Source: Bispira polyomma (Eukaryota). From it: 64,000 nt of DNA. The stretch covers positions 67,890,001-67,954,000 of the forward strand of contig OZ287754.1 of NCBI GenBank assembly GCA_965649765.1, written 5' to 3'. The position numbers and the translations under genes are program-made. How positions within the stretch are numbered: the first letter of the stretch is position 1; every line of letters starts with the position of its first letter. The notes under the pieces were generated by a model. It was not told the origin of the DNA. It searched no databases and saw only the letters and a program-made list of their open reading frames with translations. This document shows positions 1,863 to 63,679 of this stretch, piece after piece.

Positions 1863-4543
1863 ATGCAGAGACATTGTAGCTATCAACGTGAAAAATCCAG
1901 AGGTGGTAGTCATCCGGGGAGTCGTCCTCAGGATTCCTCACCTGAAAGCCAAGAGGTTTCTACTGACAGACAGGATGCAAGGAGTCGCCATTCGGATTCC
2001 TTGTATCAAAGTCAGATAAGGTATAGCCAGGGTGAGAGGAGTCCCCATTCTGTTTCCTACTCCAGACATGATTCAGATTCTTCATGCCGGAATCAGACAT
2101 GTTATAGCCAAAATGAGATGCATCGCTATTCTGATTCCTACTCCAGACGTGATTCGGGTTGTCATGCCGAAGTCACGCAGAATATAGTTAGGAAAAGAGG
2201 AGTCGATATCATGATTCCTATCCTCGTCATACATACAGAGAAGAGAGTCCTCATCGTGATTCTTCTCGCATTAACAAGGGTTTTGATCTTTCAAGCCAGA
2301 GGGAAACAACGAGGGAAGAGGACCAGAAAATAACTGATTTGCTTGTGCAGCTATGTTACTGGGTGAGGCCGGAGATTATTCAGGTGAGTGTACAACATCC
2401 CAGAAACTGCAGAAGGCCATTTGACAAGACATGGTGTGACAAGACATGGCTTCATCTTGCATCGAGGCAACATTATCTGTTTTAGTGCGCCCTAGCAGGT
2501 CAAGTGCAACCGAATCAGTGGCTAGTAAACCAAGTGCGACCATGCCAGTGGCTTCAGTGCGCCCTAGCAGGTCAAGTGCAGCCGCATCAGTTGTTCCAAA
2601 ACCAAGTGCGGCCACGTCAGTTACCTTAGATCATTCCAGCAAACAAAGTACAGTCACGTCAGTTGCCCAAGGTGTTTCTAAGTGAAGTGCACACCCTGCG
2701 GAGATATCCTCTGCAGAGGGTATGAGTCATAGTGTTTTGACACTCCGAGTATTGGACAGTCGACCTGTGGAGCGATCCACTACAGCTTTTACCCAGGAGG
2801 TGAGTGTACCATCAGGATCGGACAACCGTGGTAAGCGAAGGTCACCGGAACCTAGGTACTCTGGTGCACAGCAAAAAAAAGATCAGACAACAGCAACCTT
2901 CATCTGCAAATCAACCTTTTTCTGCAAAACCCTCAAAAAATGCCTGTTACATGGACAATTGTTATGTGAGAACAACACACCTTAAAAGGCATATGGTGGG
3001 GCAACATCTTCCAGCTTGTTGTGCCTTGCAGAGTGAAATGCCTTTGAATGATAGGATGAAACAGTTTAAGGAAGTCCTCATGAACATCCGTGGGATAGTT
3101 GGCTGTGGGAATTTAAATGAGTAGTTGGATCTGGTTCCTGAAAGGGACTGGTATCCAGCCAGTGAATTTTATACACTGACTGAGGGGGATAAAATATTGA
3201 TAAACAATTTTCATATGTGGTTTACTGGACATCCCTTAACTACGGCGTCACGGACCAATCCTCCCAATCATGTGTCATCATTGGTTCAGTGGAGAGCTTT
3301 GAGTCATCTAATTAACTGTGTCAGTGAAGAAAGAGTACAGTGGTCTCGACCAAATTTTTTTGGTGCAGGTAGACGCTGCGAATGTTTAGTCCGATGTGGA
3401 GGTGGTGCTTGTTGAGGATGAGGTTAGACTATCATCCACTCCTGCTATTAGACCACCCTCTGAGCCAGAATGAATGGATACAGGTGAACCAAGCAGGGGG
3501 GCGCTCTCAGGGGTAGAGGGAACATCACCTGTGAGGCAGCTGCCCAGAGCAGAAGAGACCTTGTATGCAGCCGTTGGCATTCAAGGGAAGAAGTCGAGGG
3601 GAAATCACCTGTATTTGTTGTGCCAACGGTGTCTTACGCAAGCAAGGTGACAGCCAAGGGAACTGCAGGAAGTGTGAAGGTGGTGGTTAAGGCCAAAGTA
3701 AGAAAGGCAAGACCAAGGAACATTTTGGTGCCTTATACCAAGGAGGAGAGGAGAGAGAGGGAGAAACATCAAAGGTTGAACATGATTAAAAAGAATGTAT
3801 GTGGCAGGGGGTTGATATGTGGAGAGGGGGCCCTGGTAGTATATCCTCAGAGGGATTCCCATTTCCACATGGACAGACTGCGTGAGAAGGCGAATCAAAA
3901 AATGTTTAGTAGAATACTGGAGGATGGCCCTATGCTTTCTGTTGCGGTGTGACTTAAGGTGGGCGTTTGTAATTTCTGTGATCAGGTTCCCTCCAAGGAT
4001 GATTTGGATTCTCTGAAAGAGGAAAAGGTTCTTTATTTTACTTTCGGATTGCACCCTAAGCAGGCTCATCAGGTTCTAGTCAAGGAAATGGACTGCATGA
4101 AAAGGTTGATCTCTAAAGAGGGCTGTTACCGTGAAATTGGTGAGATCGATATTGACCTGGGTGGCTACCACCGCGAGTATTTAAAGCAGCAGTGTGATGT
4201 GTTGGTTGACTTTCTACATTTTTACGTTGCAAAGCTGCTTTGGGCGAAGGTGTTGGTTATTCAGTGTCGCGATGCTAGCTACTGCACTGAAGCCAGTAAC
4301 CATTGCCTGAAGGTTATACAGGTCGAGCTGCCGCAGTTTAACATGCAGTCTTACCGGATCCACAGGCATTGCTACAATGGGGGGATGGAGGAAAAGGAGG
4401 AATGGTTAAGACGGTTTTAGAGGGTGATGTTTGAGTTCACGGCAATACTTCTCCGTGATACTAGACATAATGAGCTTGAGGAAGTAGTCCGAACATTACT
4501 ACTCTACCGGATTCTTCTAGAGATTGATTCTCCGCATCTTTAG
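1863..4543 (+). pseudogene. Degraded extra ORF after the integrase: R/S-rich low-complexity region, C2H2-like finger, C-terminal TatD domain
   Basis: Polypyrimidine tract plus AG (tttttatttctttag) ends at 1862. ORFs 2804, 3125, 3620 and 3959 share one frame. Contains CYMDNC...HLKRHMVGQH and PPNHVSSLVQWR. Confidence 0.7.
3851..4543 (+). pseudogene. tatD: TatD-family metal-dependent nuclease domain (in-frame stops, C-terminal helices missing)
   Basis: Collinear TatD motifs: RDSHFHMD, YFTFGLHPKQA, IGEIDID, LVIQCRDA, IHRHCYNG and, reading through the TAG at 4418-4420, MFEFTA...RILLEIDSPHL. Confidence 0.85.
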
Positions 4544-11000: not shown

Positions 11001-12238
11001 GATTCTATGTGTGTGTGTTTATCTAGCACAAGCCTGGTGTATTAATTTTGTAACCAGGTTAAACATTTTTAAATCTCTTTTACTTGGCTTAATACACAAG
11101 GTTAACAATCGGTGTATACCCACATGTATTTGAGGTTTGAGTGTTATTATTGTTAGCTACAGCCCACATACATCCAATGATGTAATTAAAGTCAATTGAT
11201 CATTGTGGAATTTGTTCAATGTTTATGTTTTACTACTGCATGTACTTACAAATACAAGCATCCTCTGTTTATGTGGGTGTGCTGGTGTGCTGCTTTAGTC
11301 TTTACTGGTACACGTTGATGTAGTTATACAGTCATTTCCTCTCTTCGTTACATTTCTGTTTTTGTGCTGATGCTGCCATGTTGTGTGTAAAAAGATCCTA
11401 TGTCATCAGGAGTTCCTAATGTAGAAAATAACCTTAATTATATTTAAAGATTTGCTTGTATAAAGTTATATGCAATAATATTATGTAATTTGTAAGATAA
11501 AACAATAATTATGTGAAAGCATGTGGAGTTAACAGCAGTATATATGCATGTAATTTTATGTAAATCAAATTTCATTTTGTCTATGAATAAAATTTGTTAT
11601 TTCAGTATCATGTAATAGCTTGTATTTGTTTTAGTATAATATCCAGATTAATAGTGTTTTGTGTATACAAATCTTTCAACTAAATATTTTCAAGTGTGAT
11701 TCAGGAATTGTATTTTAACAATGTCGCATTCCTTGTGTATTATCTTTTTTCAAAGATATATGTATACCTTTAATTGAAGGAAGTTTTATTTTTAATTTTT
11801 AGTTAAACCTTAGTTAATTTAGTTATTTTCAGTTTGAAATTAGCCACGGATAAGTGTGGCAGGAAAAAATTTCATTTGCTGTTTTGTTTGTGATACTTTA
11901 CATTTTATACAAACTGTTTTATTTTATGTCATATATAAGACAATTCACAAGAACGTTATTAGGATTTCAGTGTTTTATTGAAATGGATGGAACTTTTGTC
12001 ACACACAGTGTTTATAGTTCACAGCTACTCTCTGACAACCTCAGGCTTGGTTTAGCCCTCAGGCTGGTGATTAAGGGACGGTCTAACTTATGTGTTATTC
12101 TTGCTCATTAGTTAAATTGTAAGCCAAATTAAAAACCAAGAACTGGTGTGGCCAGAAAGTAGCGCTGTGGGCTTGTGTTTATCTCGTTTCAGTGACTTAA
12201 TAGCAAAAACAATTGCAACATAAACTAAGAACTAATAA

Positions 12239-13337
12239 TGCCACAATCAAAAGCATTGTGTAAAAAATGTGGCAACAGACACATGCCACCGACGGGGAAA
12301 AATGTAATAGAGACATACATGTTGAGACAGATAGTGAGGTAACAATGGAAGAAACCCGTGTAGTGAAGGACACTTCAGTTAGTAAACACAGGGGTGAATC
12401 TCGAGGCAGAAAGAAGTCGGCGGCGGAAGCGAGCGGCGATGACCAGGACAGTATTCAGAGGCAGATCTTGTTGCAGCTACAGAAGGTGAACGCGAGATTA
12501 GATGCAGTGGAAGACAGGGTTGAGGAGTCCAGCGCGAGTCGTCACAAGGGAAAGGAAACAAGTAGAAAGTTAAGTAGAACTGTGTAAAATAAAAAGTCAA
12601 TTAAAAGATATAGTTCTGATTGTGAGTCCTCAGATGAGGAACAAGTATTGCCAAGTTTGTCAACATTGAGAAGCTCTGCTTCATTCCAGCGTGGGGTAGA
12701 CAGTAGACTAAGGAAACTAGAGCAAGACAGTCAAAACATAGGTACTGATAATGCAAATAAAATAAAGTCAAAAAGAGGGGGTCCAGTTGAGGTAATAGTG
12801 AAGAATAAAGTAGCTTGGCATCACGAGGCAATACTAGGGGGGGTCACTAGAAACAAAGTGACCTACGACCAATTGTCTTTATCTCAGTGGATACAAGGTT
12901 TTTGTAAAAATATCATAGAAGAGTCAGACATTGAGAAAAAAGAAAAAATGGTAATGTACATGGCTGACCTAATGGAAGATGCCACTGATTTCACATGGCA
13001 AGGTGCAAAGGCAGCTCATGCTGTCTTGCTTTGTGAAATGGAACAGGGTACACTTTCTTGGCATGACACCAGTAGAATTGATAGAATTCGCAGAGCCCAT
13101 GCTCAAAAACACACAAGTAGTGGCATAGGTAATGCAAAAAAATTTGAAAATGGCAGTAAAAAACCTTGGTTTTGTAAATTTTTTCAAAACGGAACGTGTC
13201 AACATTGTAAAGATCACAAAATTTGGGGAAAGTGGCACAGAGATATCTGTTCTCACTGTGTGATCACAGGGCGTATTTTGTCCCACCCTGAAAAAGACTG
13301 TCTGTTCGCCAAGAAAAATCAAACAAAAAACGAATAA
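12239..13337 (+). pseudogene. Ngaro ORF1 (gag-like) with N- and C-terminal Cys/His fingers, frameshifted
   Basis: Starts MPQSKALCKKCGNRH... at 12239. Contains YDQLSLSQWIQGF, LMEDATDFTW and CKFFQNGTC...H...CSHC...HPEKDC. Confidence 0.75.
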
Positions 13338-13709
13338 CTGGCTGTCCACAGAGTGTTGAACTGCAGGGCAGCTGTAAATATAAAGAGATGAATCAGACAA
13401 AAGCTAAAGAGTTTAAAAAAACAGGTGATGTTTTTAGTGTAGTTAAAAACCCAGTAGATACAACTATAGGGCGTACAAGTCCAATAATGGAATTTGACAG
13501 CATGAGTGCCAGGGTAGGACATTCTGTCAATTTTAGACAGACTAAAGATCTAACTAGTCTGAAAGGTTTTAAAATGTGTAAGACAACACGGGTTTGGGGC
13601 ACCAAAAAATATAGTGATAAATGTTTTACAACACAAACATAAAAAAGAGTGTGGTGGAAAGTCTAATGGTTCGCCCATTAGAAAACGTATTGTGTACATA
13701 CAGGGCTAG

Positions 13710-16700
13710 CACAGTAGTTTTAATTTGCACAAATCCAGCACTTTAGTTGTAGTGCTGTGTTTACTTCTCTTTGGCCCAGTAACAGAGAGGAGAGTGTTTA
13801 CTGTCTATCTCACACACACAACTCACTAGTGGGATTTTATCCAGAGAAAGGGGATGTTAATTACATACTTCTTTTAAATAATGCCCTTTTTCTCAGGATG
13901 TATTGTACTTATAAATAAACAAATTACATGTATTAAAAGCTTATTCTTTTCTGTATACAGTGGTTTAAATACTTTTACAGAAAAAAAGTATATATAGATT
14001 AAATTTACTGACATTCCATTCCCACCTAAGAAGTAACAAAAAAATGGGAAACTGAATTACTACAAATATTAATGTCAATATTTTAATAGATACGGGTTTT
14101 TTATTTTAAAAAAACTTATAACACCTTATTCTAGAAAGTCTACTCTTTCAATAGATATAAATAATATATGCTTTCCACTTTTTTTAAACAAGCAGTAGTC
14201 CACTGAATGTTGTCAAAATTGTTCAACCTGTTAGTTGAAAAAGGAAGCATGTATCCTGTGAGTCATACAGTTATTAATGGCTTTGTGGCAGTAGTTGTAC
14301 ATGTGTGTATGTTTCCTGTAATTCATACATGTTTACAGTTATTAATGTCTTTTTAGAACGTCACAGTTTCTACATACACCATGCGAGTAGTTGGCTCATG
14401 TGTATTCAAAAGTACCTTCTAATTTCACTTATACTGATCCTTTGATAATTTGTAAAATATAAAACTGAAAACATGTCTTTTGATTACCACAAACAGTGTT
14501 TATTAAATATGTGTAGAATATGTGGAAAAAGAGCACTGACTGATCAACAAATACGGAAAAAAACTCCACAAAGAGTTTGTCAAAATGTGAAAGATGAAAT
14601 ATATGTATTTTTTGGATTGGATATTTGTAGTGATAATGATATTTACCCTAAAACTATATGTTGTCCTTGTTATAACAAAATGAAGAAAGCCAAGGTATTG
14701 TCAGATGATTCAAATATGAACAAAGAAAGGCTTTTAGGAGAAAAAGAAAAGGCAAATAATGTGAATAAAATGTGGTCATCACATAAAAGATATAACTGTT
14801 TCGTATGTAATTCATACAATTCACAAAAGAAAAAAGGCAGACCTGTCTGCATTAAGAAGCAAGGCAGACCAAAAAATCCACAAAAACCAGATGAAAACAT
14901 TTTTAGCATACTTTTTGGGGAAGGAAATCATTCTGAAAAGATGGATATTGAAATCCAGAATATGTCATTATCTCAAAGTAAAACTTTCACATGCCAAATA
15001 TGCCAGAATATATACTCTGTGTGTTCTGTCATAACTATGTGTGATCATTACTTCTGTTCAGAATGCTTGTCAAGCTATTTTAAACACAAAGACAGTGAGG
15101 TTACCGAGTGTCCCACTTGTTATACCTTTATTCAGTGTGATGAAGTTAGAAAATCTGATGAAAGATTTAATGATCAAGTTAAAAATCTTGATGTGAAGTG
15201 TTTGAAATGTAACTATATTGGACCACTCTCAACATTGCCATTACACAATTGTGAGCTTCAAGGAAGTGTCCCCGACAGCTTTGAAACTAGTCTTTATGAT
15301 GTTGCACATAGAGATGAATATAGAAGTCAATCACACAGCACTCCAAAACATAACACTGATGAACAAAAAACTGAAATAGAAACACAGACCTCTCCAATTG
15401 AAGATATACATCAAACATCCATTTCTTTACATGAAACATCAATTTTACATACATTGCAAAGGTCAATCTCATCACCATTATCAAAAGAGGAAGAAAGAGT
15501 TCATACTCACCTAACAAAACGCAAATTAACATTTGCAAGAGACAAAACCACAATAGCTTGCAAAACTGGAGGCCAACCAATTCTGCTAAAAAGACTTGTA
15601 AAACCCAGAAAGTCATCTGATATGGCAAAATCACCATTAAAAAGAAGAAGGGCAAAACAGATTTCCAAATTTCGTGCTATTTTGGCTGGGCCAGGTATTA
15701 TTTCTCATCAAAAGCAACAAATGTCAGAGCTAAAACTTGTGTCTAAAAAATCTCGTGTAGACATATGTGCAGGTGCGGGAGTAAAACAAAAAAGTTTTCT
15801 TTCAAAAAGAGTTGCACTAGCCATGAAGACTTCACTACGATTATCCTGGGCACAACATTGAATGCAGACACGTGTTTTGTCTGAAACTCTTGGTGTTAAG
15901 TGTGAGAGTGAAAAAACATTAAGAGCTGAAACAAAATTTCTGCTTTCTGATCACCTATCCACCACGATGATCAAGGCCAAAGAAAAAGATGATGTAGCAT
16001 GCAAAAGCAAAGATGGTTTTAGAGAAGTACAGGTCCCTGTCGTGTACATAAAAGATTTGACAGACTTTGTAAAGGAGTTGTTGCACAACTATAAAAAGGC
16101 AAATATGTTGGTCTGGAAGGAAGAAATGCCTGAAAATGAAATCTGGGTAAAACTCGGTGGTGATCATGGTGGGAAATCATTTAAATTATGTCTTCAAGTT
16201 TGCAATTTAGAAAAGCCAAATGCAAAACAAAATACTATGGCGATTGCTTGTATGCCAGCCAAAGATCTGCATGAAAATCTTACAAAATTAACCGAAATAT
16301 ACAAGAATGAAATCCAGAAATTACAGAAAGGACATTGGAAGAGAAAGAAGATCAGGGTGTTTTTGTTTGGAGACTATGCATTTCTTTCTGCTATGTATGG
16401 ATTGTCGGGTATAAGGGGGACATATTTTTGTTTATGGTGCTCAGTCAAAACTGATGCCATGCAGACATCATTACACCACAGAGGTCATTCTGCAAAGAGA
16501 ACACTCTCCACACTTAAAATGGATCATGATAATTTCATCAAAAAGGGAAAAGGCCAAACAAAGCTGGCCTCCCAGTATCATAGTGTTATTCATGATCCAT
16601 TATGGGATATAAAGATAAGTCATGTGTGTCCACCTAATCTGCACATATTACTTGGAGTTGTCAAAAAGCATCATGATCTCCTTGAAAAGGATCTACATGA

Positions 16701-18523
16701 AGTAGATTTAGAAATTGTTACTGAAATACAACTGTCAAAGGCAAAGCTTGACAATTCAGTGTTTCATGTCTTTATTCAAAATGTACGGAACTGCCGCAAG
16801 CTTCAAAATGAACTTCGATACATCTCTCCCACACAAGGTGACAGCAGTAGTGAAAATGCTACACTGACCAAAACGGAAGCTGCAGAGTTGGACTCCAGAA
16901 TCAAGAATTTACAGCACAAACTGGAAAAACCAATTCCCACACTGAGTGTATTTAGTGGACCATTAGATGCTGAAGTACAGCAAGTTTTGAAGACAGCATA
17001 TTGTACAACAGGCTTATCACTCTCGCAGCTTTGTTGGCAACCATTGCTCCAAATACATTAAACAAGGTGTACAAGATGACATATGTGCAAGCTTACAAGA
17101 AAAAGTGTGTGAACTGTCCAGAAATATTGAGCTCAATGAAAATGGTGCAAGCATAGCAATGAAATTTCAAAAACTGAATACTTTGTTTTCTGTTGTGCAT
17201 GATGAAATTGGCCATATGAGGTCAGTTACTCAAAATTATCTTGAGAAAGTAAGTGATGCCATTCAGAAATACATGTCATTTTACAGAGAACATTTTCCAA
17301 ACTGTGTGATAACCAAGATGCATTTTTTAGAAGACCACATTGTTCAATGGATGCATAAATATAAATTTGGTATGGCTCTTCATGGAGAACAAGGCGGAGA
17401 ATCCATACATCGGGAATTCAATAAACTTGAGCATACCATGTCCCATGTTCCCAATTTGGAAAAAAGACTGCTGTATGTTATGCAGGAACATCACACAATA
17501 TACCATCCTCTTGTTCAGCAAAAAGTTGTTAAACCTAAATTCAAAAAACACAAACTATAGGTCGATAGCCTTGCCTTTGTGTATCAATGAATGAAATTAA
17601 AGTTAATTGGCATTTTACACTAATTTTAAGTGGATCAGTGATAATATAATGTAGATCAGTCTAAAATATGTTATTACATAGATTTATCAATAACAGAAAG
17701 AACTGTGCTGCAAGAAAATGTGTTAGTGGAAACTGTATATATTTTTCTTCATAACATTCCTGTCTCCTTCAAGTTTCAGAGTTTATTTATAAAAAAGTAT
17801 TCATTTAAAATATAAAATATATTGACAATCTAACTGTCTCAGTAATGAAGACTGTAACAGAAAACACAACACCTATTCCTTCACTGGTAGAGTTTTGTTT
17901 ATACAGAGGCATAAGGATATATGTTTACACTCAGCCTTCTGTGATATAAAGCCTTCTGTACTTCACATATGCCCGTGTTCAGGATACTTTGAGCCAACAC
18001 TGATGTTAAATGTGAGTACTTTGTATTGCCATTTTTTTCTAATTAAAAAAAATGGAAAGTATTTTTCAGGTATATTATTTGAATCAGGAAAGGTAGTACA
18101 TTATAAAGATATAATTTTTAAGAAAATAAAAAACCCGATTCATACTGAAATTGTTTGATATAAATGAGTTGTTTTAAACAGAAGTTCATTTCATTCAGCA
18201 GTTTATTGTAGTAAGTACATGGAATGGAATGTGCTAGTTTTACACAAGAGAACAATTATTATATTCTTTAAATGTTACATAAATGAAAAGTTAACATTTC
18301 AAGCTTTTAATAGAGGTTATTTTTTTTCTAAAAGTGTGGATAAAAGTAAAGTAAATATAACAATCAATTAAAGAGATGCACTCTTTGTACAAAGAACTTC
18401 CCACTTAAAATGAGTTGTGTGTGTTTCACTGGGTTTTGGGGAGAGGGAGTGTTTACACTGAAAACCTGCTAACTGCTGTGTTACAGTAGAGTCAACTAAA
18501 CATACACTAACAAAACTACTGTG
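13710..18523 (+). mobile_element. Chapaev / N-RAG-TP-like DNA transposon (4814 bp) with a RAG1-like transposase
   Basis: 12-bp TIR CACAGTAGTTTT (13710-13721) and AAAACTACTGTG (18512-18523). About 470 bp of collinear subterminal inverted blocks. GGCT follows the right end and also lies 2 bp before the left end (imperfect 4-bp TSD). Interrupts Ngaro ORF2. Confidence 0.85.
14473..17560 (+). pseudogene. RAG1-related (Chapaev-type) transposase of about 1030 aa: Chapa zinc domain, AT-hooks, C3HC4 RING, zinc finger, DDE core; one stop and one frameshift
   Basis: HKQCLLNMCRICG...ICCPC...WSSH...CFVC; GRP twice; CQIC...CDHYFCSEC...CPTC; CLKC...HNC; KTGGQP; KLGGDHGG; FLFGDYAFL; FCLWC; LHILLG; QAYHSRSFVGNHC (after a frameshift near 16995); KMHFLEDH; HGEQGGESIH. 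In-frame TGA at 15859-15861. Confidence 0.9.
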
Positions 18524-20110
18524 GGCTGTTAAATGTGACGTGACTGCTAGGTCTTATGCCAGTGTAATAAAAAACAGACTTAGGGAAGTCAAAACACGAC
18601 AACTTAGCAAGACCGTTAGTAGTACACAATGTGTCAAACTTATTGATGTGACAACTTGTAATGAACTAAACAAAGCTGGGGTGAAAGAGCAGCAGCTCAC
18701 ACCTTCCACCAAAAAGTTAGACAAAAGACAGAGGGGAAATTTTCCTCCCCACAGAAATCGACAACGGGTCAGAAATGACTCACATGATAACTCAAAGCAT
18801 GAAACCAAACTGTTATATAATATAAATGGCATGGATGACAAGTTTATCAACTCCATACTTTTTCATGGCCCTGGGACAAACATATCCAAACAGACGGGGG
18901 GGGCGATTGTAAAAGCTTTAATAAATTTTAAGAACAAACAGAGTTTCAATTTGGTTTTGTTCCTTTGAGTGACCCCATGACTTCTGACCAAACAAACAGA
19001 CAGTGTAGTATTGCATGTCCACTCAAGAGACATAATGAGGTCAAAAAAAAATGGGAGGCCCAATTTTATGGGTGCGAGAATACCAGTGGTTTAAACATAA
19101 GTCAGTGGAAAAAAATGTTAAATTTGGCAAGGTATCTACATTGACACGTGCCTACCCTTTTGGAGTCGTCATAGCAGTCAGTTTTTTTAACGGGTCAGTG
19201 ACGCAGTGCGTTACGTTATGCGTCAGCATGGCTTCAGTGTTATAAACTACATAGATGATTTTTTAGGGTACGGCACACCTACAGTCGCAAAACGTTCATT
19301 CGAATGTCTATATGACGTCATGGAAAAGTTAGGTCTTACAATAAGCCAGAAAAAGTTGGTAGCTCCCAGCACACAAGCAGTGTGCCTGGGTATACTTGTT
19401 GATACTGTCTAGGGCACGGTGGCAATACCGGAAGAAAAACTACAGGAAATCAAAACCACAGTAAAGCAGTGGAAAACAAAAAAATTATTGTACAAAAAGG
19501 CAGTTACAGTCCTTATTAGGACAATTACTATATATTCACAAATGTGTCAAACCGGCAAGATACTTCCTCAATAGAATGTTGGAGCTATTACGAAGTATAG
19601 CAAATCCAAACAGAGTCGAGTTGACAGAAAGTTTCAAACAAAACTTAAGGTGGTTTGACAAATTTCTGCCAAAATACAATGGTATATCCATGTATGGCTA
19701 CAAGAGGACCAATCACACATTGGAACTGGATGCCTGCTTGTATGGTTTGGGAGGTAGATGGAGGCAATTGGTATATCACCTCACCATCACATTAATTTTA
19801 AAAATTTGGGTATTGTTTACCTTGAAATGGTCAATATTTTAGTCGCTTTGAGATTATACAAAAATTATTGGCAGGGAACAAAAGTACTAATTAAGTGTGA
19901 CAACCATTCTTGTCAGCATGTGTCAGAAATGTGTGGTATATGGCAGCCACAGCGGATATTGATTGACAATTTGTGCCTGTCCTAGGTAAAGATAATACGA
20001 TAGCGGCTATGCTATCCAGATGGAAAATTGTATGGAGTTGAATTCACTGGTACACAATCTCATATGGCTACAGACTTCGATAGAACTAACAGAAGTAGAC
20101 AACAGATTGT
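18524..20110 (+). pseudogene. Ngaro reverse transcriptase/RNase H remnant (N-terminal part at ~13320-13709, before the insertion)
   Basis: YIDTCLPF near 19137, INYIDDFLG, LGILVDT, LELDACLYGLGG, LEMVNILVAL, IKCDN. Confidence 0.85.
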
Positions 20111-20170
20111 AAATAAAATAACACCATAATAACTAAGCATGTAGTTTTAGTTACGTAAAAATACTATGCT

Positions 20171-21122
20171 TTGTTTTGTGGGCACAGAAGCACTTTGGGC
20201 TCTGCAGTCAGGAGCAAATCACAGGCTCCACACAGCTTTCAGACAAGATCCAGTTATCAAGGTTTATTCAGAACATTTGTTGCATTCTGCTTATGTACAG
20301 GGCTAGCATTAGGAGCCCTAGAAGTGAAAAATGTTATGTCTTTTCTTGAATATTTGGTAATAAACAAGATATTTGTGCAAATGATAGCCAATTACGTATC
20401 TGCATTAAAAGCAATGTGTGTAATATATGAGTTGCTCTTTCATTTTTTTGACCACCCAAAAATCAAATACTTTATAAAGTCTCTAAAATTAAACAGAAAA
20501 CATGCTGTGGTTAAAAGAAACGTATTGGACATTGATACACTACAACAGTTAATAAGGCATTGTGCTTATATAAGTAATTGTTTAAAGCCATTTTTTTGAC
20601 AGATTGTTTTGGGTTCTTCAGGCTGTCCAATCTGGCTCCGCATTCAGTCAAAGAATTTGACGCATCACATCATTTCACTGGCGGTGATGTATTTTTCGAA
20701 AAAGACACGATAAAACTATTACTAAAATGGTTCAAGACCTTGCAGCACAGAGATAACCTTCAAATAATTACCCTCCCCAAACTTAAAGCTTTGTTAATTT
20801 GCCCGTATGAGGCATTGAAATAATTATTCAGATTGTATAAGCCAGGAAAGAATGACCCTTTGTTTCAACAACTACTGGTCGTCAGGTAATCACTGATTCT
20901 AGAGTAAAGAAGAATTTGGCAAAATTAAATGAAAAATTGGGATATCCACCAAATTTGTTCACTTTTCATGCATTCCGGCGTTCAGGTGCCTCTCTGGCGT
21001 ATCAGGCGCAGGTGCCTATACAGCAAATAAAGGAGCATGGCACCTGCAAGTCGGACTGTGTGTATACATATATACAATCAAACACAAATACTACAGAAGT
21101 GGCTACTACCAGACTTTGTTAA
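20171..21122 (+). pseudogene. Tyrosine recombinase of the Ngaro element, frameshifted
   Basis: FGFFRLSNL (catalytic R), ICPYEAL, FTFHAFRRSGAS (HxxR), IKEHGTCKSDCVYTYI (catalytic Y region). Confidence 0.9.
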
Positions 21123-22671
21123 ATCCTGCATAATGTTTCTACTCATACTAGTTGGGTTTGAGGTTTTCTGTATATAGTAACACATCTGAAATTAAAACAA
21201 TTGTGAAAGTTGAGATCAACTGGGTCTTAAAATATTGGTATCTTAAAGTCATAATAACCCCTTTAAGTGGAAACTTTAACTCAAAACAATTTAAGAATTT
21301 TACACGTGACCTCAACTTAAAGTCTTAAAACATTGTAACCTTTTTATAGTTGTATTAAAATTTGTACTTGAAATGTATATAGATAGTAGTTTAGACTATA
21401 TATTTTACACTTTTACATATACATTTTATATAATAAAAGTGTTTACCCTCATGGATTTGTTGTCTTTGACTTGGGAGTGTGGGGGACAGTCGGGGGCAGT
21501 GTTAAGGCATTGCCCTTGTCAGTCCTTCACGACCTTAAATTCATGAGGGTACCAGTCTGTTGGTAACACAGGTAAAAAAGTTAAGTCATCAATAAACAAC
21601 CCCCATGTTGTTATGTGGAAATTTAGGTAAATTAATTTGATTGGTCAAGAACAGTAAGCAAAGAGACTTATTAGTAAACATACGTCAGCTTGAAATTAGC
21701 CACGGATAAGTGTGGCAGGAAAAAAATTGTTCCCACCCACCCTATTCCCTTAGAGTAAGCTAGTGTCTTATAAGTCAGTCCAAGAAATGACGTGTAACAA
21801 TTGAGGTGTGCAGTGTAATCCTATGCTTAACAAAAGACACTATCGGTGAAGCTCGATGGGCAAGTTATCCTGCCATGAAGCGCATCTAATTGTGATTCAA
21901 GGTCGTAAATAGGGAATTTTCTTAGACTCTAGATAGTGGTATGACTGTTACAGTACTACTGGTTAATACGTTTTGGCATAACACAATATATTGTCCTTGT
22001 TAATTTTAGTTTTAAATCATGTTGAGGTTTCCTGTATATAGTAACACATGTGAAATTAAAACAATTGTGAAAGTTGAGGTCAACTGGGTCTTAAAATATT
22101 CATATCTTAAAGTCAAAATAACCCCTTTGCGGGTTAGGGTAATCTTAAACTGGTTCAGTTTCACTTCACCCTGGTGACTCATCAAGTTAGGGTCACCTTA
22201 CAATTTGGTTTAGGTGTACTCTTAAGTTAAGAGCACCATTAACTAAAACAAGTTTAAGTTGAAACCTAAACTCAAAATACTTAAGTTTGAAAAAATTGTA
22301 AATTTAAGATTTTCAAACGTGACCTTAACTTAAAGTCTTAAAACATAGTAACCTTTTTGTAGTTGTATTAAAATTTGTACTTGAAATGTATATAGTAGTT
22401 TAGACTATATATTTTACACTTTTACAAATACATTTTATAAAATAAAAGTATATACCCTCATGGATTTGCTATCTTTGACTTGGGAGTGTGGGGGACTGAC
22501 AGTCTTACAGACCAATCACACCTTTCTTTTGTTAAGTGAAAATAAAAACACCAGATAACCACACTGTGTGTGTATCAGTATAACATGGGAACATTACAAC
22601 AACATCACATAAACAAGGGAACAACTACACCAAGTTTTGGCCGGGTTTTGGCTTCATTCATTAACCCAAAA

Positions 22672-30100: not shown

Positions 30101-33042
30101 GATTCATGGCTATCAGTACAGAGTTTAACACATTGTAAACCAATTGAAATACAGATAGGCAGGACATATCGAATCCTACATCATTGGCTGATAGGTGAAA
30201 CTGTGTATTGAAGTGGTATCTATGATAATCTGTATGTCATCGCAGTAGATGGGCATACTTAGGACTGCATTTAATAATATATATATATAACAACACTGAT
30301 GAAAGGTGGATGAAAAAGTCAAGTACCTGCTGCAAGACTTATTTATTGATCTAATAGAGCGGTACTTGGTATAAGACTTATTTATTGATCTAATAGAGCA
30401 GTACTTGGTATAATACTTTTTTGTTGATCTAATAGAGCAGTACTTGGTATAATACGTATTTATTGATGTAATAGAGCAGTACTTGGTATAGTACTTATTT
30501 ATTGATTTAATAGAGCAGTACTTGGTACAAGACTTATTTATTGATCTAATAGAGCAGTACTTGGTATAATACTTATTTATTGATCTAATAGAGCAGTACT
30601 TGGTACAAGACTTATTTATTGATGTAATAGAGCAGTACTTGGTACAATACTTATTTATTGATCTAATAGAGCAGTACTTGGTACAAGATTTATTTATTGA
30701 TCTAATAGAGCAGTACTTGGTACAAGACTTATTTATTGATGTAATAGAGCAGTACTTGGTACAATACTTATTTATTGATCTAATAGAGCAGTACTTGGTA
30801 CAAGATTTATTTATTGATCTAATAGAGCAGTGCTTGGTACAAGACTTTTTTATTGATGTAATAGAGCAGTACTTGGTATAGTACTTATTTATTGATCTAA
30901 TAGAGCAGTACTTGGTACAAGACTTATTTATTGATCTAATAAAGCAATACTTGGTATAATACTTATTTATTGATCTAATAGAGCAGTACTTGGTACAATA
31001 CTTATTTCTTGATCTAATAGAGCAGTACTTAGTACAAGATTTATTTATTGATATAATAGAGCAGTACTTGGTACAATACTTATTTATTGATCTAATAGAG
31101 CAGTACTTGGTACAAGATTTATTTATTGATGTGATAGAGCAGTACCTGGTATAAGACTTATTTATTGATGTATTACAGCAGTACCTGCTACAAGACTTAT
31201 TTAATGATCTATTAGAGCAGTACCTGGTACAAGACTTATTTATTGATCTAATAGAGCAGTACATAGTACAAGACTTATTTATTGATGTAATAGAGCAGTA
31301 CTTGGTACAATACTTATTTATTGATGTAATAAAACAGTACCTGGTACAAGACTTATTTATTGATCTATTAGAGCAGTACCTGCTACACGACTTATTAATT
31401 GATCTATTAGAGCAGTACCTGCTACAAGACTTATTTATTGTTCTATTACAGCAGTACCTGCTACAAGATTTATTTATTGATCTAACAGAGCAGTACCTGC
31501 TTCAAGACTTATTTATTGATCTATTAGAGCAGTACTTGGTATAAGACTTATTTATTGATCTATTAGAGCAGTACCTGCTACAAGACTTATTTATTGATTA
31601 ATTAAAGCAGTACTTGGTATAAGACTTATTTATTGATCTATTAGAGCAGTACCTGGTGTAAGACTTATTTATTGATATGATGGGACTTGACATTTGTTTT
31701 TTCAGATTTGTTATAGCAGTAAACTCGGATTTAGACACAGATGACTTAGATGGCTACTCCAGCTCTTCCTTTGAGTCCTATAATACTGATGACTTTGAAG
31801 ACAATTCGTCAGATGAAGAGGCCATGGCTTCTGCACCAAAAGCACGGAAAAGCTGCATTATAAAGGATAATAACTCCGATGATGAAGATCTGTCAGTGCC
31901 AGAGGAAGTTTTAGCTGCAACACTGGAGGACTTTAGCCTGCCGGTATTGAATTTTTGTCCACATAAAAATACCACAAAAGAAATGGTAATTAGACCAGAC
32001 AGAAAAAAAACTGTGTCAGGTAATAATTTCATGGGTGTTTCTGTGTTCTCTGAAGGTTACCCCAAAGTTGAATCGAAGAATTAGTAGTACACGTATATGA
32101 CTGAATTCAAAAGATGATAAAATCACTATTATGGGCTTCACTTTTGGCTAGGATTTTTCATATATTCCATGTGGTAGAGTGTGTGCCTTGATTTTGCAAT
32201 AGGTCGTTAGTTCGAACCCCAGTTTTGACAATATTCATTGAATTGTTTTCCCATAGAGTGAACCAGGTACTCTTTAATTTGCATATGTAGTTCTTTGAAA
32301 GTAAATCCTGAAAGGTCAGGTATCGGTTATATAAGCAAGTAACATCTATATAAAAAGGTGGAAATCAAAGCAGGTTTTCTGAATTCTAAACAATCAGCCT
32401 CCAGCAAGAATACTGCAAACTTTCCCAAAATTCGAACCTACAACAGAAAAAATAGGGAGCAAATGTGTTTCCACTACACCAGCGTGGTCCTTGCTGATGT
32501 TTAAACCAGGGAGACCCAGTTAGTAAAGTGCCAGATTCTAGACAGATGTGATATGTTCATTTAGGTTGAGCTCAATAATATATAACACTATTATTTTGAT
32601 CTGATTGAATATGAAATGAACAACTGTGAATACCTTACATAATCATGTAAAAAATATATTAATTTAATTTCACATAAACACCAACACTTAAAATGTCCTA
32701 AATTTTAAAATATTTGAAAATATGTAATTATATAGAAGCCACTTGAAGTGTTTTGTAATAATGAAACCCTTATATGTTAGATGCAAATACTATTATTCAA
32801 TATTTTAAACAGTCTACCCTACTGATGCCACTATCCGTGATATAGCTATGAGGATCACTTTGCAAAAATTAACCATATTTGCAAGAAGTTTGGGCTTTGA
32901 TGCAAGCCATCCATGTTGTGCAGAGCCACGGAGAGATACTTGTGACCAAGCCAAGGCGTTACTGATGAACTGGAGGGAAAAACAGGTTCAAAATAGAGTT
33001 GAAGTGTCTCAAATTAGGACCCAGTTAAATGACATTTTTTAA
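27175..33042 (+). pseudogene. Multi-exon ankyrin-repeat + Death-domain gene, pseudogenised (exons ~27175-27883, 28279-28512, ~29250-29464, 31720-32019, 32813-~33005)
   Basis: Ankyrin motifs SILHTVI, GNNALMHSV, (G)MNLLHIVS, WTPLHLAAVFCHLDCTKWLVKHGAD. In-frame TGA at 27517 and TAG near 27553. Phase-1 AG/GT junctions. Acidic exon. Last exon TDATIRDIA...FARSLGF...DQAKALLMNWREK is Death-fold-like. Confidence 0.7.
30322..31676. repeat. 39-bp tandem minisatellite, about 35 copies, intronic
   Basis: Consensus tatttattgatctaatagagcagtacttggtacaagact, head-to-tail with no spacers. Confidence 0.95.
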
Positions 33043-54268: not shown

Positions 54269-57200
54269 TAGTGGTCGGAATGTTTGAATGATATAAAACA
54301 CACAGTCGGCACCAAATAATTAAAATACTAACACTACTTACTTTTATTTCATTGTGTATCAACTTCAGTATCCAAAAGTATAGCACAAACAGTACTTCTA
54401 TAACCTTATGATAATTACCATAAAAGGCAAGTCATGTGACACATTTTGCAGGTACACAATAAAGGTAGTTGCAGTAAAAATACTAGCCTATTTTCAAGTC
54501 TCCTATGTATCCCTAACTCTGACCAATAGAAACAAGCAAATTTCTTTTCAAACAGTTTCATTTCCCACATATGATATATAAATAAACAAATTATTGTGAG
54601 AAATAATTGAAAACACTTGTCTTATTGTATTTTGAAGCCATATTGCCAGTTTCACTTGCTCACACCTAACTAATAATTCTAGTCCATTGTTTTTGTATTT
54701 TGATTCCATCTTTGCAGCTCACTTGGTCAAACTAAAAACTAAAAATTAATTACCTTATCAAACTCACTTTTGAACTTAAACTTCTTTAAGCACTTTAATA
54801 ATTTAAATGGATTACAACTAGTTTGTCCACTGTTTCTGGTTTTAATATGGCCCTTTTTTTACTGACCACATTCCCACAAGTACTAAACACCCTCTCTGAT
54901 GGGGTAGATATCGTAAGAATACACAACATTTTTCTGGCTAGGTTCGACAACATTGGATAAAAAACAGAATTATGTTTCCACCACAACAGTGGGATGAATG
55001 TCTTATCTGTTAACATATCTTTGGGGATTTGGGAGTGAAAGTACCTGTCCAACTCGTTGGTGGCATTTCCCAGTTCAGAAACTTCGACATCTTCAATGCC
55101 ACAGCAGATAATATCATCCAAATCAAATGCGCTAACTTTGGCCTTTTTAGCTGAAGGTGGGCTATCACCAGAACTAGCCTCAGAAGGTTCAGATTTAACT
55201 GAAACAATAGGCGGCTGTTCTTGTGTTGCAGCCTCGGGATGTTCTTGTAATATACTAGCAACAAAAGGAGTAGTGGCTTGTGAAATTTCTGATATTGTAT
55301 CAATTACCATTTGAAACTTGCACTGGCCATAGATGGCTTGTCTCTCACCAAGGCTACAAAATGACAGGTGTCTAAATCTTGGATCTAGACAAGAGGCCAG
55401 GAATAAAAACTCTTTTAATTTTGGTTGCTGGTATCTGTTTTTATGATTGTTATGCATGGCTAGTTTTACCAGTTTTTCGAAAGGGCTATCAGAAGGATGG
55501 TTTGCAGGATGCTTATGCAGCAATTGATGTAGGAAATTATTTAAATGGTAGCATAAGAGTCAACACTGAGTTTAACCGTTTCAATTTTTCAAAGGCTTTA
55601 GAAGTTCAGCAAGCTCTTCTAGGAGAGATATCTTATTTGTCTCTAAACTGAAACATTTGACTTTTTGTGGGTCATGCATTAGTACAGCATTCATTGCCAA
55701 CTGCTGTACTAGCAAGCGAATTACCATGTCAAATATTGAGTTCCACCTTGTTTCACAGTCTTGAAGTAGCTTATTTTGGGGTAATTGTAGAAGCTTTTGC
55801 TTCTCATTCAACAAATTTGAACTCTGTGAGGAATAATGGAAATGGGAAACAAGGCGCTTTGCACTCGCTACCACCTTAGAAGCTTACGGAACTTCAAAAG
55901 CCTTTCTTGCACACAAATTTAAAGTTTGGGAAATACATGCTATAACAAGTCTATCCATCTTATCTCAAGCATTTTTAATATATTTTGCATTATCTGCATT
56001 GCCAACTACATGTTTCCCAGCAAAAAAACATTCTTCAAAAGCTTGTTCAAGACCAGCAGCCAAGTTCTCTGAAGTGTGGGGACTGGGGCATATGTTGTGT
56101 TTGTAGGACCTTAGAGATAAGATCCCAGTTGTCGTTGAGGCAGTGGATGGTAACTAAAGAAAATGAAGTAAAATTCTGGTCAAGATTGTTGTCTTTAAGA
56201 TCATTAAGTTTTTGTCATTCTGTACAACTTCTGGTTGTGGGGAAAGTAGGCAGTAAACCACGAGATTTGTTGAAGGCCAGTGGTTTGCAGTAGTTTGCAC
56301 TTTGCAGTGCAGGAGATTTTTGCCTACTACCCTTCATTAGTTTATAGTTTCCTCCACCACCTGTCATGGACTTGTGCAATATGTGAAAAAGGCTTCAAAA
56401 GCCATATAAAACACAAATAAAGTGAAATATTCACATTCATGCTATTCAATTTTTATTAAAACATGATATACTGATAAGTTTAGGTGCCTTGACCTTAGAA
56501 AAGACTTGTGGAATAATTATACTGCTCATCGTTTTAGAACATGGCATGCTGTATCTTGGGTGTAATAAATCCACGAAGCATGGAAATATGGGATACTGAC
56601 AGTGGACAGAGGCACAAGATCTTTCACAATCCATTTTGTGAGTTGTTTTGTAATATCCTTGCTTTCCTTACTAAAATAAAAGGCTTGACTTCAAGCTTAC
56701 CGCAAGCAGACTGAATGGAAGCCTGTTTTACAGAACTACTTGCTCTATGCATAATATCAGAGTGATAACTATTGAGATGAGTCATCATGTTGCTTGTATT
56801 CCAACCTTTGTAAGGGATGGTAACATGGCAAATTTTACAAACAGTTTCATTTCTCTTGATTTTGCCATCAATCTTGTAGAATCCAAAATGCTTCCAAACT
56901 TTACTTGCATTAGATCTTTTCCCAGATTCATTATCCACTATTACTTTCTCTGTTTCCATTATATTTTCAGCCATTTTTTACTCAAATAATAATTCAAACT
57001 GATTAAAAATATTTAAACATTAAGCTAAGAATGCATATCCTTGGCCACAGAATGACATTATCTGAAGTTTTATTCACGTCATAAAAAACCGGGGCCGACT
57101 TGGAGAGGCTAGTATTTTTTGCTTACTGTTTCTTTATCGGCGACCATATTGGATATCACTTCAGTTAATAAAAGTTGGTAAAACAAATTGTAAATGTGTT

Positions 57201-60115: not shown

Positions 60116-60623
60116 TTTTGGGGCATTAATGACAGAGTTTCATAACAGTAGGGGTGGGATGGTGCAAAGAAAATGCTTAAAGTGCTCGTTCTTGGAAACC
60201 CGCCTCGAATTCGGATACTCGCGAGGTTTTATATTTACCATATATAAACACCAGAAACAAATATGGCTGTTTCCCTGTACTACCTCTGGTTATAATTCGG
60301 CCGCCTGTTGTAAATCGGCCATCACATTTTAAATGGTAATTATTAACAATCTAGGTACAAAATTAACCATTTTGGGGCATTAATGACAGAGTTTCATAAC
60401 AGTAGGGGTGGGATGGTGCAAAGAAAATGCTTAAAGTGCTCGTTCTTGGAAACCCGACTCGAATTCGGATACTCGCGAGGTTTTATATTTACCATATATA
60501 AACACCAGAAACAAATATGGCTGTTTCCCTGTACTACCTCTGGTTATAATTCGGCCGCCTGTTGTAAATCGGCCATCACATTTTAAATGGTAATTATTAA
60601 CAATCTAGGTACAAAATTAACCA
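60116..60623. repeat. 254-bp near-perfect tandem duplication
   Basis: 60116-60369 matches 60370-60623 with one visible substitution. Identical ORFs at 60129 and 60383. Confidence 0.92.
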
Positions 60624-60771
60624 TAGGATTCAAATAAAACAATTACAATAGTAATATTCAAGGAAGGACAGTAATGTTAGGTCAATAAATTTAAATAATT
60701 AGAAGTTATGTCACATTAATTGTAGGATGGCCGATTCATGACAGGCGGCCGAGTTATGACCACAGGCAGTA
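60532..60771. mobile_element. MITE with ~45-bp TIRs, Tc1/mariner-pogo-like
   Basis: tactacctctggttataattcggccgcctgttgtaaatcggccatc is inverted relative to gatggccgattcatgacaggcggccgagttatgaccacaggcagta. TA at both ends. Confidence 0.6.
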
Positions 60772-60859: not shown

Positions 60860-63679
60860 AAAACTAGAAATACATTAGGTTTAAATGATAGTATGGCCTT
60901 AAATGAATATAACACTAGGAAATTAGAACTGGAAACTAAACTTAATGCCTTTTATAAAGAGAAGGCTAAAGGTTATTGTATAAGGTCAAGAGCTCAGTGG
61001 ATACAAGAAGGAGAGGTAAATAGTAGATACTTTTTGAGTCTTGAAAAACAAAAACAAAGTAATAATGTCATAAGAAGAATCAAATGTGGGGATATATATT
61101 ATGAAACAGTGAAATTTTAAATGAAACAGTAAAATTTTATAACAATCTATACAGACATACACAAATTCCCAAAGAAAATATTGAAACCTATTTTAAAAAA
61201 CATAAACCAGAGAATATACTGAATAACAGTGAGACTGCTTTATGTGATGAAAATATATCTGAAGAAGAAGTATCAGTGGTTGTTAAAAAGCTAAAGCAGA
61301 ACAAATCACCTGGCTTAGATGGCCTGACTTCTGAATTCTATCAATTGTTTTGGAATAAACTTCAACCATTATATATGAACATGCTAGAAGAATCTTTTAA
61401 GAAGGGTATTCTACCCAGCAGTATCAGAAAAGCTGTCATATCGTTAATATTTAAGAAAGGTGATCAAACACTGTTAAAGAACTATAGGCCGATAAGCCTA
61501 ACAAACTGTGATTACAAAATATTAACCTTCATATTATCACAGCGTATGCAAACGGTAATATCAAAACTAATATCAAGTGATCAATGTGGATATATTAAAA
61601 AACGATATATTGGTCTAAATGCTAGAATAATAAATGATACAATAGAATACTATGATAATAATAACTTACCTGGTTCAGTAATATGTCTAGATTTTGAAAA
61701 GACTTTTCACTCCTTAGATTGGAATTTCATGATATCAGCTTTAGAAAACTTTGGTTTTGGAAAAAATTTTACTCGCTGGATTCAAATTCTTTACACAAAT
61801 CCATCTTTCTGCATTAAAAACAATGGGTGGATATCAAAAGAATCTTACATGAAAAGGGGAATAAGACAAGGATGTGCAGTGTCAGCACTGCTGTTTATTA
61901 TTTCTGTAGAATTCATGTCAATACAAATTAAACAGTGTCAAAATATAAATGGCATCAAACTTTTTGATAAAGAGTGCAGAATTTTACAATATGCTGATGA
62001 CACTACACTCACATTGCTTGACTGTGAGTCAATTTCATATTCACTCACAGAAATACAGCATTTTTCTAAGTTATCTGGTCTGACAATAAATGTCAATAAA
62101 TCTGAAGGCCTATGGCTCGGAAATCTTAAAGATAGCCCTGAGACATTCCCAAGGAATAAAATTTAGTGATGGCCCAATAAAATACCTAGGGATATATATT
62201 GGTAAAAACAACAAAGTGTGTGAAGAACTAAACTGGAATAAAAAGATAAATGAAATTGAAATATTATTGTCTAAATGGAACACTCAACAGTTAACATTAT
62301 TGGGCAAGTCTGTTGTAATAGATAGCTTAATTATTCCAAAATTGGTGTACTGCATGACTATATTGCATGTACCGGATTCTGTTGTTAAAAAAATTGATAA
62401 AATGATATATTCTTTCCTCTTTGGAAAAGTATATAAAATTAGAAAGGGTTCTGTTATAGGTCGTGTTGAAAATGGCGGGCTTAATGTCATAGATATTGGA
62501 ACAAAAATATCATCTTTGAAAACCTCATGGATACCAAAACTACTCCATGACAATAGCAAATTAACAGAAATTCTTAAAATGTATTTACATCCAATGAAAA
62601 TCGATGTTAATCTTCTATTGAAAATGAATTGCCGGAAAATAGAAAGCTCTGATATTCTTCAGAGGCTTCCTCACTTTTACCAAGACATCATTATCTCTTT
62701 TAACACATGTAGGTCAATAAAGCATATTGCTAATCTAAATAATGCAGAGGTTTTCTCACAAATCATATGGGGAAATGAATATTTCAAAATGAACAATAAA
62801 ACTTTGTATTATGACAATTGGATACAAAGTGGTTTCTTGTTTGTGAAAGACTTGTTTGATAATAATGGGAGTTGGCTTAATGAAACTGAAATATTAAAAA
62901 AGCTTGACAGAAAAAATAATTGGATAATTGAATTTGCTATAATCAAAACAACTCTTAGTAAACAAGTTAAAAAGTATGATAGTAGTGTATGTAAATATAT
63001 TCAACAACCAATGCTACAAAATACAGATTTCTTTGCTCTTGGCAAAATTATGAAGACAAACTGCATTGATTCTAAAAGTGTCTATCAAGTTCTAATCAAT
63101 AAAAAGTTCAACCGTCCTTACACTGAGAAAATGTGGCAAAAGGTGTTAGATATTTCATTAAATAGACACGACTGGGAGAAAATATACATTTACAACATCA
63201 AAGAGACAAAATATAGAAAATTTGCAGAATTTAAATATAAGATCTTGCTTAGTATATTACCTTGTGGCAAATATGTAAATAAATGGAATAAAAATGTACC
63301 ACTATATTGTGCTTATTGTAATGAAACTGAAAGTGTTATGCACATGTTATTCCACTGTAAAAGGGTACAGGACATTTGGATATCCATTCAAGAATGCTTA
63401 AAGCTTAATGTTACATTGAAACATATCATACTGGGATTAAACTGTGAATATTATCCAAATACTAACAAACATCTATGTATCATTATAGTATGTTATTCTA
63501 TTTATGCTGTATGGTGTAGATGTTCCTTCGATAAAATCAGTTTTAAAACTGTGAACTTAAAAAATAGTATAAAACAACAACTTATTTATTACTCAGAAGT
63601 TTATGAAAATATATTATCTATGACGCAAAAATCCCATTTGAACCAACTAATCAAAAATATAATCCTGCATTTAGATTGA
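60860..63679 (+). mobile_element. Tx1/L1-clade LINE ORF2 (RT + C-terminal zinc finger), 5'-truncated, frameshifts near 61110 and 62150
   Basis: IRSRAQWIQEGE, KSPGLDGLTSEFY, NYRPISLTNCDYKIL, GIRQGC, QYADD, KYLGI, GGL, CAYC...HMLFHC. No endonuclease domain seen. Confidence 0.92.

Follow-up and report, generated by a model that had tools for sequence, protein, structure and literature searches.

A decayed RING-bearing Chapaev transposon with a predicted RAG1 fold and unequally placed subterminal motifs

Background

A 64-kb stretch of the Bispira polyomma genome (hereafter the window; G000:C7:67890001-67954000 of a 1.04-Gb, 75-contig source) contains a mobile element at positions 13710-18523, described in the original prediction as a RAG1-like transposon without RAG2. 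The locus raises the question of whether this element belongs with RAG1 and Transib or with the Chapaev transposons, and whether its ends bear on the origin of the 12/23 rule. The evidence presented below indicates that it is probably a dead single-gene Chapaev transposon with 4-bp target-site duplications (TSDs), a transposase of predicted RAG1 fold and a likely left-right pairing of its ends via a motif located 9-10 bp deeper at the left.

Element boundaries and class assignment

The insertion and its immediate surroundings comprise the following features (positions within the window):

13710..18523, + strand: Chapaev DNA transposon copy of family F1, 4,814 bp, delimited by copy alignments and empty sites
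13710..13721, + strand: left terminal inverted repeat CACAGTAGTTTT, 12 bp, perfect versus the right end
18512..18523, - strand: right terminal inverted repeat CACAGTAGTTTT, 12 bp, perfect versus the left end
13704..13707, + strand: left TSD GGCT, from empty host sites
13708..13709, + strand: two extra bases AG after the left GGCT, absent from empty sites
18524..18527, + strand: right TSD GGCT, from the sequence and empty sites
11829..21728, + strand: host element around the insertion, decayed and multi-copy, with gag-like, reverse transcriptase/RNase-H-like and tyrosine-recombinase-like frames

The limits of the element are exact: sister copies start and stop at identical bases, and empty host sites join across it. 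The host element, which we take to be DIRS-type, is bounded by a 44-bp direct repeat, has at least eight other copies without a Chapaev insertion and yields integrase matches only under the Pfam cut-off. The sequence ...CAGGGCTGTTAA was seen in all three empty host sites inspected out of six retrieved, so that the duplication of the window copy is GGCT. A 5-bp duplication (GGCTG, with one base inserted) was considered for this copy and ruled out, as all nine other two-ended copies (three of F1, six of a second family, F2) have 4 bp. The two DNA runs compared stem from one study, possibly the source of the assembly, and do not represent independent support.

The element is almost certainly a decayed copy of a single-gene, RING-bearing Chapaev transposon, because of its 4-bp TSD, CAC...GTG ends, Chapa domain, C(2)C, LH and H(4)H motifs and DUF1280. 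In the accessible part of PMC4079192, Chapaev elements are characterised by 5'-CAC...GTG-3' termini, 3-4-bp TSDs and a DDE (Asp-Asp-Glu) transposase with C(2)C, LH and H(4)H motifs; the window element has all of these. The three Chapa motifs given in the sections of PMC1131882 at hand are matched, the second with one residue less spacing, and DUF1280 scores above cut-off in the window protein as well as in 30/30 full-length relatives scanned. Thus, the Chapaev match, the CAC...GTG termini and the 4-bp duplication expected in the original prediction were all borne out. Membership in Chapaev3, with its 3-bp TWA duplication and transposase of about 560 residues (PMC4079192, same part), is ruled out by variable 4-bp TSDs and a length of 1,029 residues.

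Loss of RAG2L from a Transib or RAG1L (ProtoRAG-type) ancestor would be compatible with the best structural match to RAG1 across the whole core (see below), with ends beginning with CACAGT and with the RAG1 order of N-terminal zinc-binding domain (NZD), RING and zinc finger. This origin is nevertheless highly improbable and already largely refuted. The 5-bp TSD expected for RAG1L/ProtoRAG and Transib occurs in 0/9 copies, and identity to the RAG1 core (14-16% by structural alignment) falls below the >30% of TransibSU/RAG1L cores (PMC4411706). The spacing from the second catalytic Asp to the Glu is 343 residues versus 253 in RAG1 and 206-214 in Transib, and PF12940 has no match in the window protein or the scanned full-length relatives. 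The non-coding flanks of 763 and 963 bp leave no room for RAG2L, with no other open reading frame (ORF) >129 residues within the element. The title of the original prediction was therefore overstated. Searches of the same genome for PF12940 (RAG1) and PF03089 (RAG2) returned 0 matches, but the control was silent too, so that absence from the genome is not shown by them.

Transposase and its kinship with RAG1

The transposase gene, in which no intron is evident and which is collinear with an intact 1,032-residue ORF of F2, has the following domains and catalytic residues:

14473..17560, + strand: transposase pseudogene, 1,029 codons by sister-copy comparison
14473..14817, + strand: Chapa / RAG1-NZD-like double zinc finger, type I pattern (ligands H6; C14, C17, C63, C66; H104, C109, C112)
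14923..15270, + strand: C3HC4 RING and following zinc finger, residues about 151-266
15568..15795, + strand: GGQP motif (GGQP 366) and helices predicted to align with the RAG1 nonamer-binding domain (NBD), from profile alignments and the structural alignment of a sister core
16162..16164, + strand: catalytic D564 (GGDHG), D in 116/116 aligned relatives
16372..16374, + strand: catalytic D634 (GDY), D in 126/127
17399..17401, + strand: catalytic E977 (EQGGES), aligned with RAG1 E962, E in 104/108

Together with the catalytic triad, C653/C656, H724 and H951/H956 are near-invariant among relatives, and H6-x7-CRICG and LHILLG are likewise present. All motifs listed in the original prediction were thus recovered, except that the histidine pair is H-x4-H (H951/H956) and not H-x3-H. 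The RING proper (residues 174-216) scores above the Pfam cut-off for PF00097 and has all eight ligands. The first 126 residues yield zf-AD under the Pfam cut-off and a trace of RAG1_imp_bd, for which one relative scores above cut-off; in the top ESM Atlas clusters for the Chapa domain, PF12560 is found in 12-33% of members. The family as a whole is large, 847 clusters at 50% identity scoring under 1e-30.

Searching solved structures with the window protein as a single sequence retrieved only generic RINGs and no RAG1, which appeared with profiles only. A profile of 15 RING-bearing members aligned collinearly with mouse RAG1 101-383 (E 2.5e-32) and with the NZD structure 21WB (E 5.7e-13). For the RING and zinc finger alone, RAG1 constructs scored 54.6-61 bits and RNF125, the best single-stretch non-RAG match, 51. 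In case of the core, the profile match to RAG1 stayed under significance, yet in register at D708 and E962.

Fold comparison was based on a model of the natural open core of a sister copy (L027), with a predicted local distance difference test score (pLDDT) of 95.7 and a predicted template modelling score (pTM) of 0.88. Foldseek ranked RAG1 first (E 4.6e-15), followed by BbeRAG1L (1.7e-9) and HzTransib (5.5e-8), the next unrelated structure being at 0.063. VIA gave Z 26.4 for the RAG1 core (root-mean-square deviation (rmsd) 8.8, 517 aligned), 24.6 for BbeRAG1L (rmsd 4.5, 468 aligned), 16.9 for HzTransib and 10.7 for the P element. With their starts at chain residue 395-405 of RAG1 (in the 6cij row, the sister core from residue about 380 aligns to RAG1 395 onward), these alignments cover the NBD. 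Kinship with RAG1 is therefore confirmed, the transposase being predicted from models to share the RAG1 fold from the N-terminal zinc finger through the catalytic core.

The original prediction would fall if the N-terminal region resembled RAG1 no more closely than any RING does. A specific resemblance holds for the Chapa/NZD part by the match to 21WB, while that of the RING module is only marginal. A model of the N-terminal 462 residues of the window protein (pLDDT 85.9) matched RAG1 structure 1RMD with Z 12.2 (rmsd 4.1, 112 aligned); fold searches with this model were filled by RING proteins and speak for the RING part only. Weighing against a specific kinship of this part, 1RMD was tied with LNX1/2 and lay about 1 Z above TRAF6, so that the lead of RAG1 for the RING amounts to a tie.

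Subterminal motif and unequal ends

Both ends contain the same 7-mer, in inverted orientation and at unequal depth:

13742..13748, + strand: left subterminal motif TTTAGTT, base 33 from the end, exact in 6/7 F1 and 7/7 F2 left ends
18494..18500, - strand: right subterminal motif TTTAGTT, base 24 from the end in F1, base 23 in F2

At F1 right ends the motif is exact at base 24 in 5/10 copies, has one substitution in two, is more decayed in one and insertion-shifted in two; at F2 right ends it is exact at base 23 in 8/8. TTTAGTT is the only 7-mer common to all four F1/F2 ends, and 0/20,000 shuffles share one. In a third, older family of this genome (F3), the offsets are 33/24 in one copy (L097) and 32/25 in the second insertion (segmental duplicates). 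The F3 ends start with the exact heptamer CACAGTG of recombination signal sequences (RSSs; as quoted in the available portion of PMC1131882), from which the first 7 bases of the left terminal repeat in the window differ by 1 mismatch.

Further elements were compared in a test set of 28 metagenome loci, most of them partial; among F1-F3 and these elements, protein identity is 35-46% and little DNA is alignable. Counted from CAC, YTTAGT is found on the left at offset 33 in four loci and 34 in one, with three others scattered, and on the right at offset 23 in three, with seven scattered singles. The longer YTTAGTT occurs three times at left 33 (shuffled mean 0.03) and three times at right 23/24 (shuffled mean 0.22), whereas at the swapped left and right positions it occurs 0 and 0 times. 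Among the six loci with a Chapa domain and >=676 bp upstream, four have the motif at 33-34, one (L110) has a variant and one (L106) has nothing. L109 carries the motif at both ends (33/23). In L110, which lies nearest to a distant RING-bearing clade, the ends share GCGGACATTT with a 10-bp offset, though in other letters than YTTAGTT. Taken together, the left/right offset is very probably a conserved feature.

Several observations weigh against a conserved, RSS-like end structure. YTTAGTT is a loosened form of the initial TTTAGTT, adopted once L104 and L109 had been inspected; with strict TTTAGTT, two left (null 0.04) and one right end (null 0.14, P 0.13) remain in the 28 loci, most of which display no motif pattern. 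The left end of L103 is ambiguous owing to a rival, nearly symmetric repeat pair inside, that of L126 is tentative, L106 displays no ends, in L105 the motif is not accompanied by a CAC where one would be expected, and the ends of L109 and L110 lack matching TSDs. The offset difference is 9 (F1), 10 (F2, L109, L110) or 7 or 9 (F3), but never 11 as in RSSs. Moreover, the motif is T-rich while RSS and Transib nonamers are A-rich, so that it is not a nonamer by sequence. Spacers of 23 and 13-14 bp depend on a 9-mer frame picked post hoc; the frame-free fact is the 9-10-bp offset. Of two sequence hallmarks of RSS-type ends, CAC with a second block about one helical turn apart in offset is thus present in F1, F2, L097, L109 and L110, whereas in place of an A-rich nonamer like ACAAAAACC the block is YTTAGTT read inward.

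A nonamer-like ACAAATCCA 12 bp past the left heptamer was considered and discarded, having 6/9 matches and being found neither at the right end nor in F2; a loose genome-wide pattern for the end motif was uninformative (1,706 matches versus 2,596 for the reversed control); and a motif-blind search for end pairs gave many chance pairs, only the longest blocks being informative. Separately, a GAGAG..AGTGTTTAC stretch lies near both ends (13757-13802 and 18437-18457), in direct and not inverted orientation.

Proposed mechanism

Fold, catalytic residues and duplications suggest cut-and-paste transposition by a dimer of the RAG1-fold DDE transposase. In analogy to RAG1 and Transib, the dimer would cleave next to the terminal CAC, probably through a nick followed by a hairpin, and would insert the element with a 4-bp stagger. 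By the same analogy to RAG1, the GGQP/NBD-like domain may grip the YTTAGTT motif, and the one-turn offset may keep both motifs on one helix face, favouring left-right pairing.

Alternatively, the unequal ends may be unrelated to a pairing rule, the motif being a site for the transposase or a host factor whose offset became fixed once in a shared ancestor and has since been maintained by the local geometry of binding, comparable to the unlike ends of hAT and piggyBac. Unlike ends are common in other superfamilies (Hermes and piggyBat, according to a literature listing available in part), the motif does not resemble the RSS nonamer, and the offset difference is 7-10 bp instead of 11. In addition, AA(G/A)ATGGCG blocks, presumably YY1-like, are located near both ends of L103 and L110, those of L103 (145-190) being part of an inverted repeat of 46 bp that is nearly symmetric. 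Against this explanation stand the maintenance of left 33 (32-34) and right 23-25 across families of such low protein identity and little alignable DNA, the persistence of the offset in L110 despite changed motif letters, and the NBD-like region that profile and fold assign to the enzyme. This explanation is therefore regarded as rather unlikely, and left-right pairing via the unequally placed motif is preferred.

Whether such pairing is homologous to 12/23 is another matter, and a working rule of that descent is considered doubtful. One may speculate, by analogy, that Chapaev follows a 12/23-like rule without RAG2, in which an NBD-homologous domain would contact a 9-mer that is separated from the heptamer by some 13 and 23 bp; pairing, NZD and RING would then be ancestral to Chapaev, Transib and RAG1, a possible but tentative scenario.

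Copies, families and decay

The coding region of the window copy is interrupted by two lesions:

15859..15861, + strand: premature TGA at a CpG site, CGA in 4/5 sister copies, TGA also in L024
16989..16993, + strand: frameshift with 2 nt missing at ~16991, versus 6/6 sister copies

Both lesions had been recognised in the original prediction, but its description as near-intact overlooks 33 further private missense changes. Of its private changes relative to the majority base in five sister copies, 34 are non-synonymous, the stop included, and 3 synonymous; with 33 missense versus 3 silent private changes, it therefore decayed without selection. The non-synonymous excess over neutral likely reflects mutational bias. 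Private changes include N704S in an invariant and Y722N in a nearly invariant column.

F1 copies diverge by 1.7-4.2% from the window copy, and none of the six having most of the coding region is intact, although L027 retains a 932-codon open frame. The 4.8-kb F2 elements, with a transposase 42% identical to that of F1 over 857 aligned residues, are 0.8-2.8% from L086 (L086 1870-6690 = G000:C6:81643369-81648189), which holds the unbroken 1,032-residue ORF. Of the intact copies sought by the original prediction, F2 offers one with a full ORF (L086) and F1 none (0/6); neither this ORF nor the end asymmetry figured in that prediction.

The L086 ORF is situated 321 bp upstream of a C2H2 zinc-finger frame 800 codons in length, and its preserved length beside this gene may suggest that it, or the window gene, was domesticated for a host function. 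Private changes of 34:3 (window) and 11:1 (L086, all 11 missense) non-synonymous to synonymous speak for no purifying selection, and both copies keep ends and TSDs; domestication is thus very hard to credit, and the reading as a dead transposon of a mobile family is retained.

In F3, the TSDs of two independent insertions match at 3/4 bases. One old insertion is present at four loci (L101, L152, L153 and L154) with the same flank(s), which indicates that it was copied along with a larger element or duplicated segment. When transposases from two distant clades were used as queries, no further Chapaev families came up in this genome beyond the known places and small fragments, and no relatives were found in viral contigs.

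RING module

Counting only relatives with both Chapa domain and core, 19/54 possess a RING. On the core tree, RING presence changes eight times, at least five of these being forced by supported branches, and the nearest relative of F2 is without a RING, about 125 residues having been cleanly lost from it. Distances between RINGs correlate with those between cores (Mantel 0.67, 0/5,000 permutations). This pattern fits an ancestral RING lost repeatedly, as proposed by Kapitonov and Koonin (PMC4411706). The donor direction is unreadable from the tree, since it is unrooted and its rows are relatives only, none from RAG1 or Repbase. The RING-zinc finger likely represents an optional, vertically inherited module, putatively a unit for dimerisation or E2 binding. 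In many RING ligases, the Arg that follows the final Cys is an important residue. Its absence here (His in 5/6 F1 copies, Tyr in the window, variable among the 19 relatives) weighs against ligase activity.

Other features of the window

Outside the element and its host, the window contains:

61105-63676: reverse transcriptase of a non-LTR (long terminal repeat) retrotransposon, spread over two frames (RVT_1 E 7e-33)
54798-55559, - strand: C-terminal fragment of a hAT transposase
3953-4417: TatD-like DNase fragment, in a GC-richer stretch
30322-31676: 39-bp tandem array of about 35 copies
60116-60624: 254-bp tandem duplication, 99% identity

Comparison with known systems

The combination of Chapa domain, RING and DDE core was already published in 2015 (PMC4411706, text and Additional file 5), which leaves little novelty in this main point of the original prediction. 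RING-bearing members described there are Chapaev-1/2_BF, -1/2_NV and -4/6/7_HM (Kapitonov and Koonin 2015). They share with the window element the order of Chapa domain, C3HC4 RING, zinc finger and DDE core in a single ORF, CAC..GTG ends, a 4-bp TSD and, by eye in the Additional file 5 alignment, a basic KGRP..GRP stretch after the Chapa domain. By contrast, the three Aplysia Chapaevs in that file have no RING. The families described here are considered new, and the 33 versus 23-24 offset is not mentioned in the portion of PMC4411706 at hand. N-RAG-TP of Aplysia (Panchin and Moroz 2008), as cited in the accessible part of PMC8355894, is a molluscan element with a protein resembling the RAG1 N-terminus.

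Type I and II Chapa domains were defined by Hong et al. (bioRxiv 10.64898/2026.01.24.700457), who, in the part available, state that Chapa function is without experimental validation; among the matches listed, there were no papers on Chapaev activity or structure. With the Chapa domain of type I and with the RAG1 NZD (21WB), the window domain shares one N-terminal His, the C-terminal His-Cys-Cys for the second zinc and the profile match. In contrast to 21WB, it is without the insert that vertebrates carry between the first pair of Cys residues and the helix that follows (an alignment gap).

Compared to RAG1 and RAG1L (ProtoRAG, PflRAGL-A), the element is similar in the order of its domains, in its predicted core fold, nonamer-binding region included, and in its heptamer-like ends, those of PflRAGL-A having a 10-bp spacer asymmetry (2023.08.20.553239, partial text). 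It differs by the absence of RAG2L, 4-bp TSDs, 14-16% identity, a T-rich instead of A-rich inner motif, about 90 extra residues (a long helical hairpin) between the second Asp and the Glu, and a disordered linker of some 55 residues that follows the zinc finger. Transib (HzTransib) is likewise a single-component transposase of RAG1 fold, and some of its families have unequal heptamer-spacer-nonamer ends; 12/23-like ends are reported for five, including Transib5 and Transib2_AG (PMC1131882, in part). In contrast to the window element, Transib is without Chapa and RING and has 5-bp TSDs as a rule and a AAAAAAATC nonamer.

Outside V(D)J recombination, 12/23 asymmetry is attributed only to some Transib families, the best-studied ProtoRAG being without it (PMC8355894, a 2021 review, available portion). 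The covered parts of PMC4079192, PMC1131882, PMC8355894, PMC12730594, PMC3014272, bioRxiv 100735, 2023.08.20.553239 and 2026.08.26.747230 contain no description of Chapaev end geometry or asymmetry; Panchin and Moroz 2008, which may have it, and Repbase Reports lie outside that coverage. If conserved, a one-turn asymmetry of this third lineage, with NZD, RING and an NBD-like region in one polypeptide, would bear on the ancestry of the rule and on the need for RAG2. Should the asymmetry lack a function, the element would be no more than an ordinary fossil transposon whose type has already been described. The young F2 copies (0.8-2.8% apart), one with a full ORF, offer material for direct tests of the end rule. 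Set against these systems, the RING-Chapaev architecture is known, whereas the end offset shared across families is the part that looks new.

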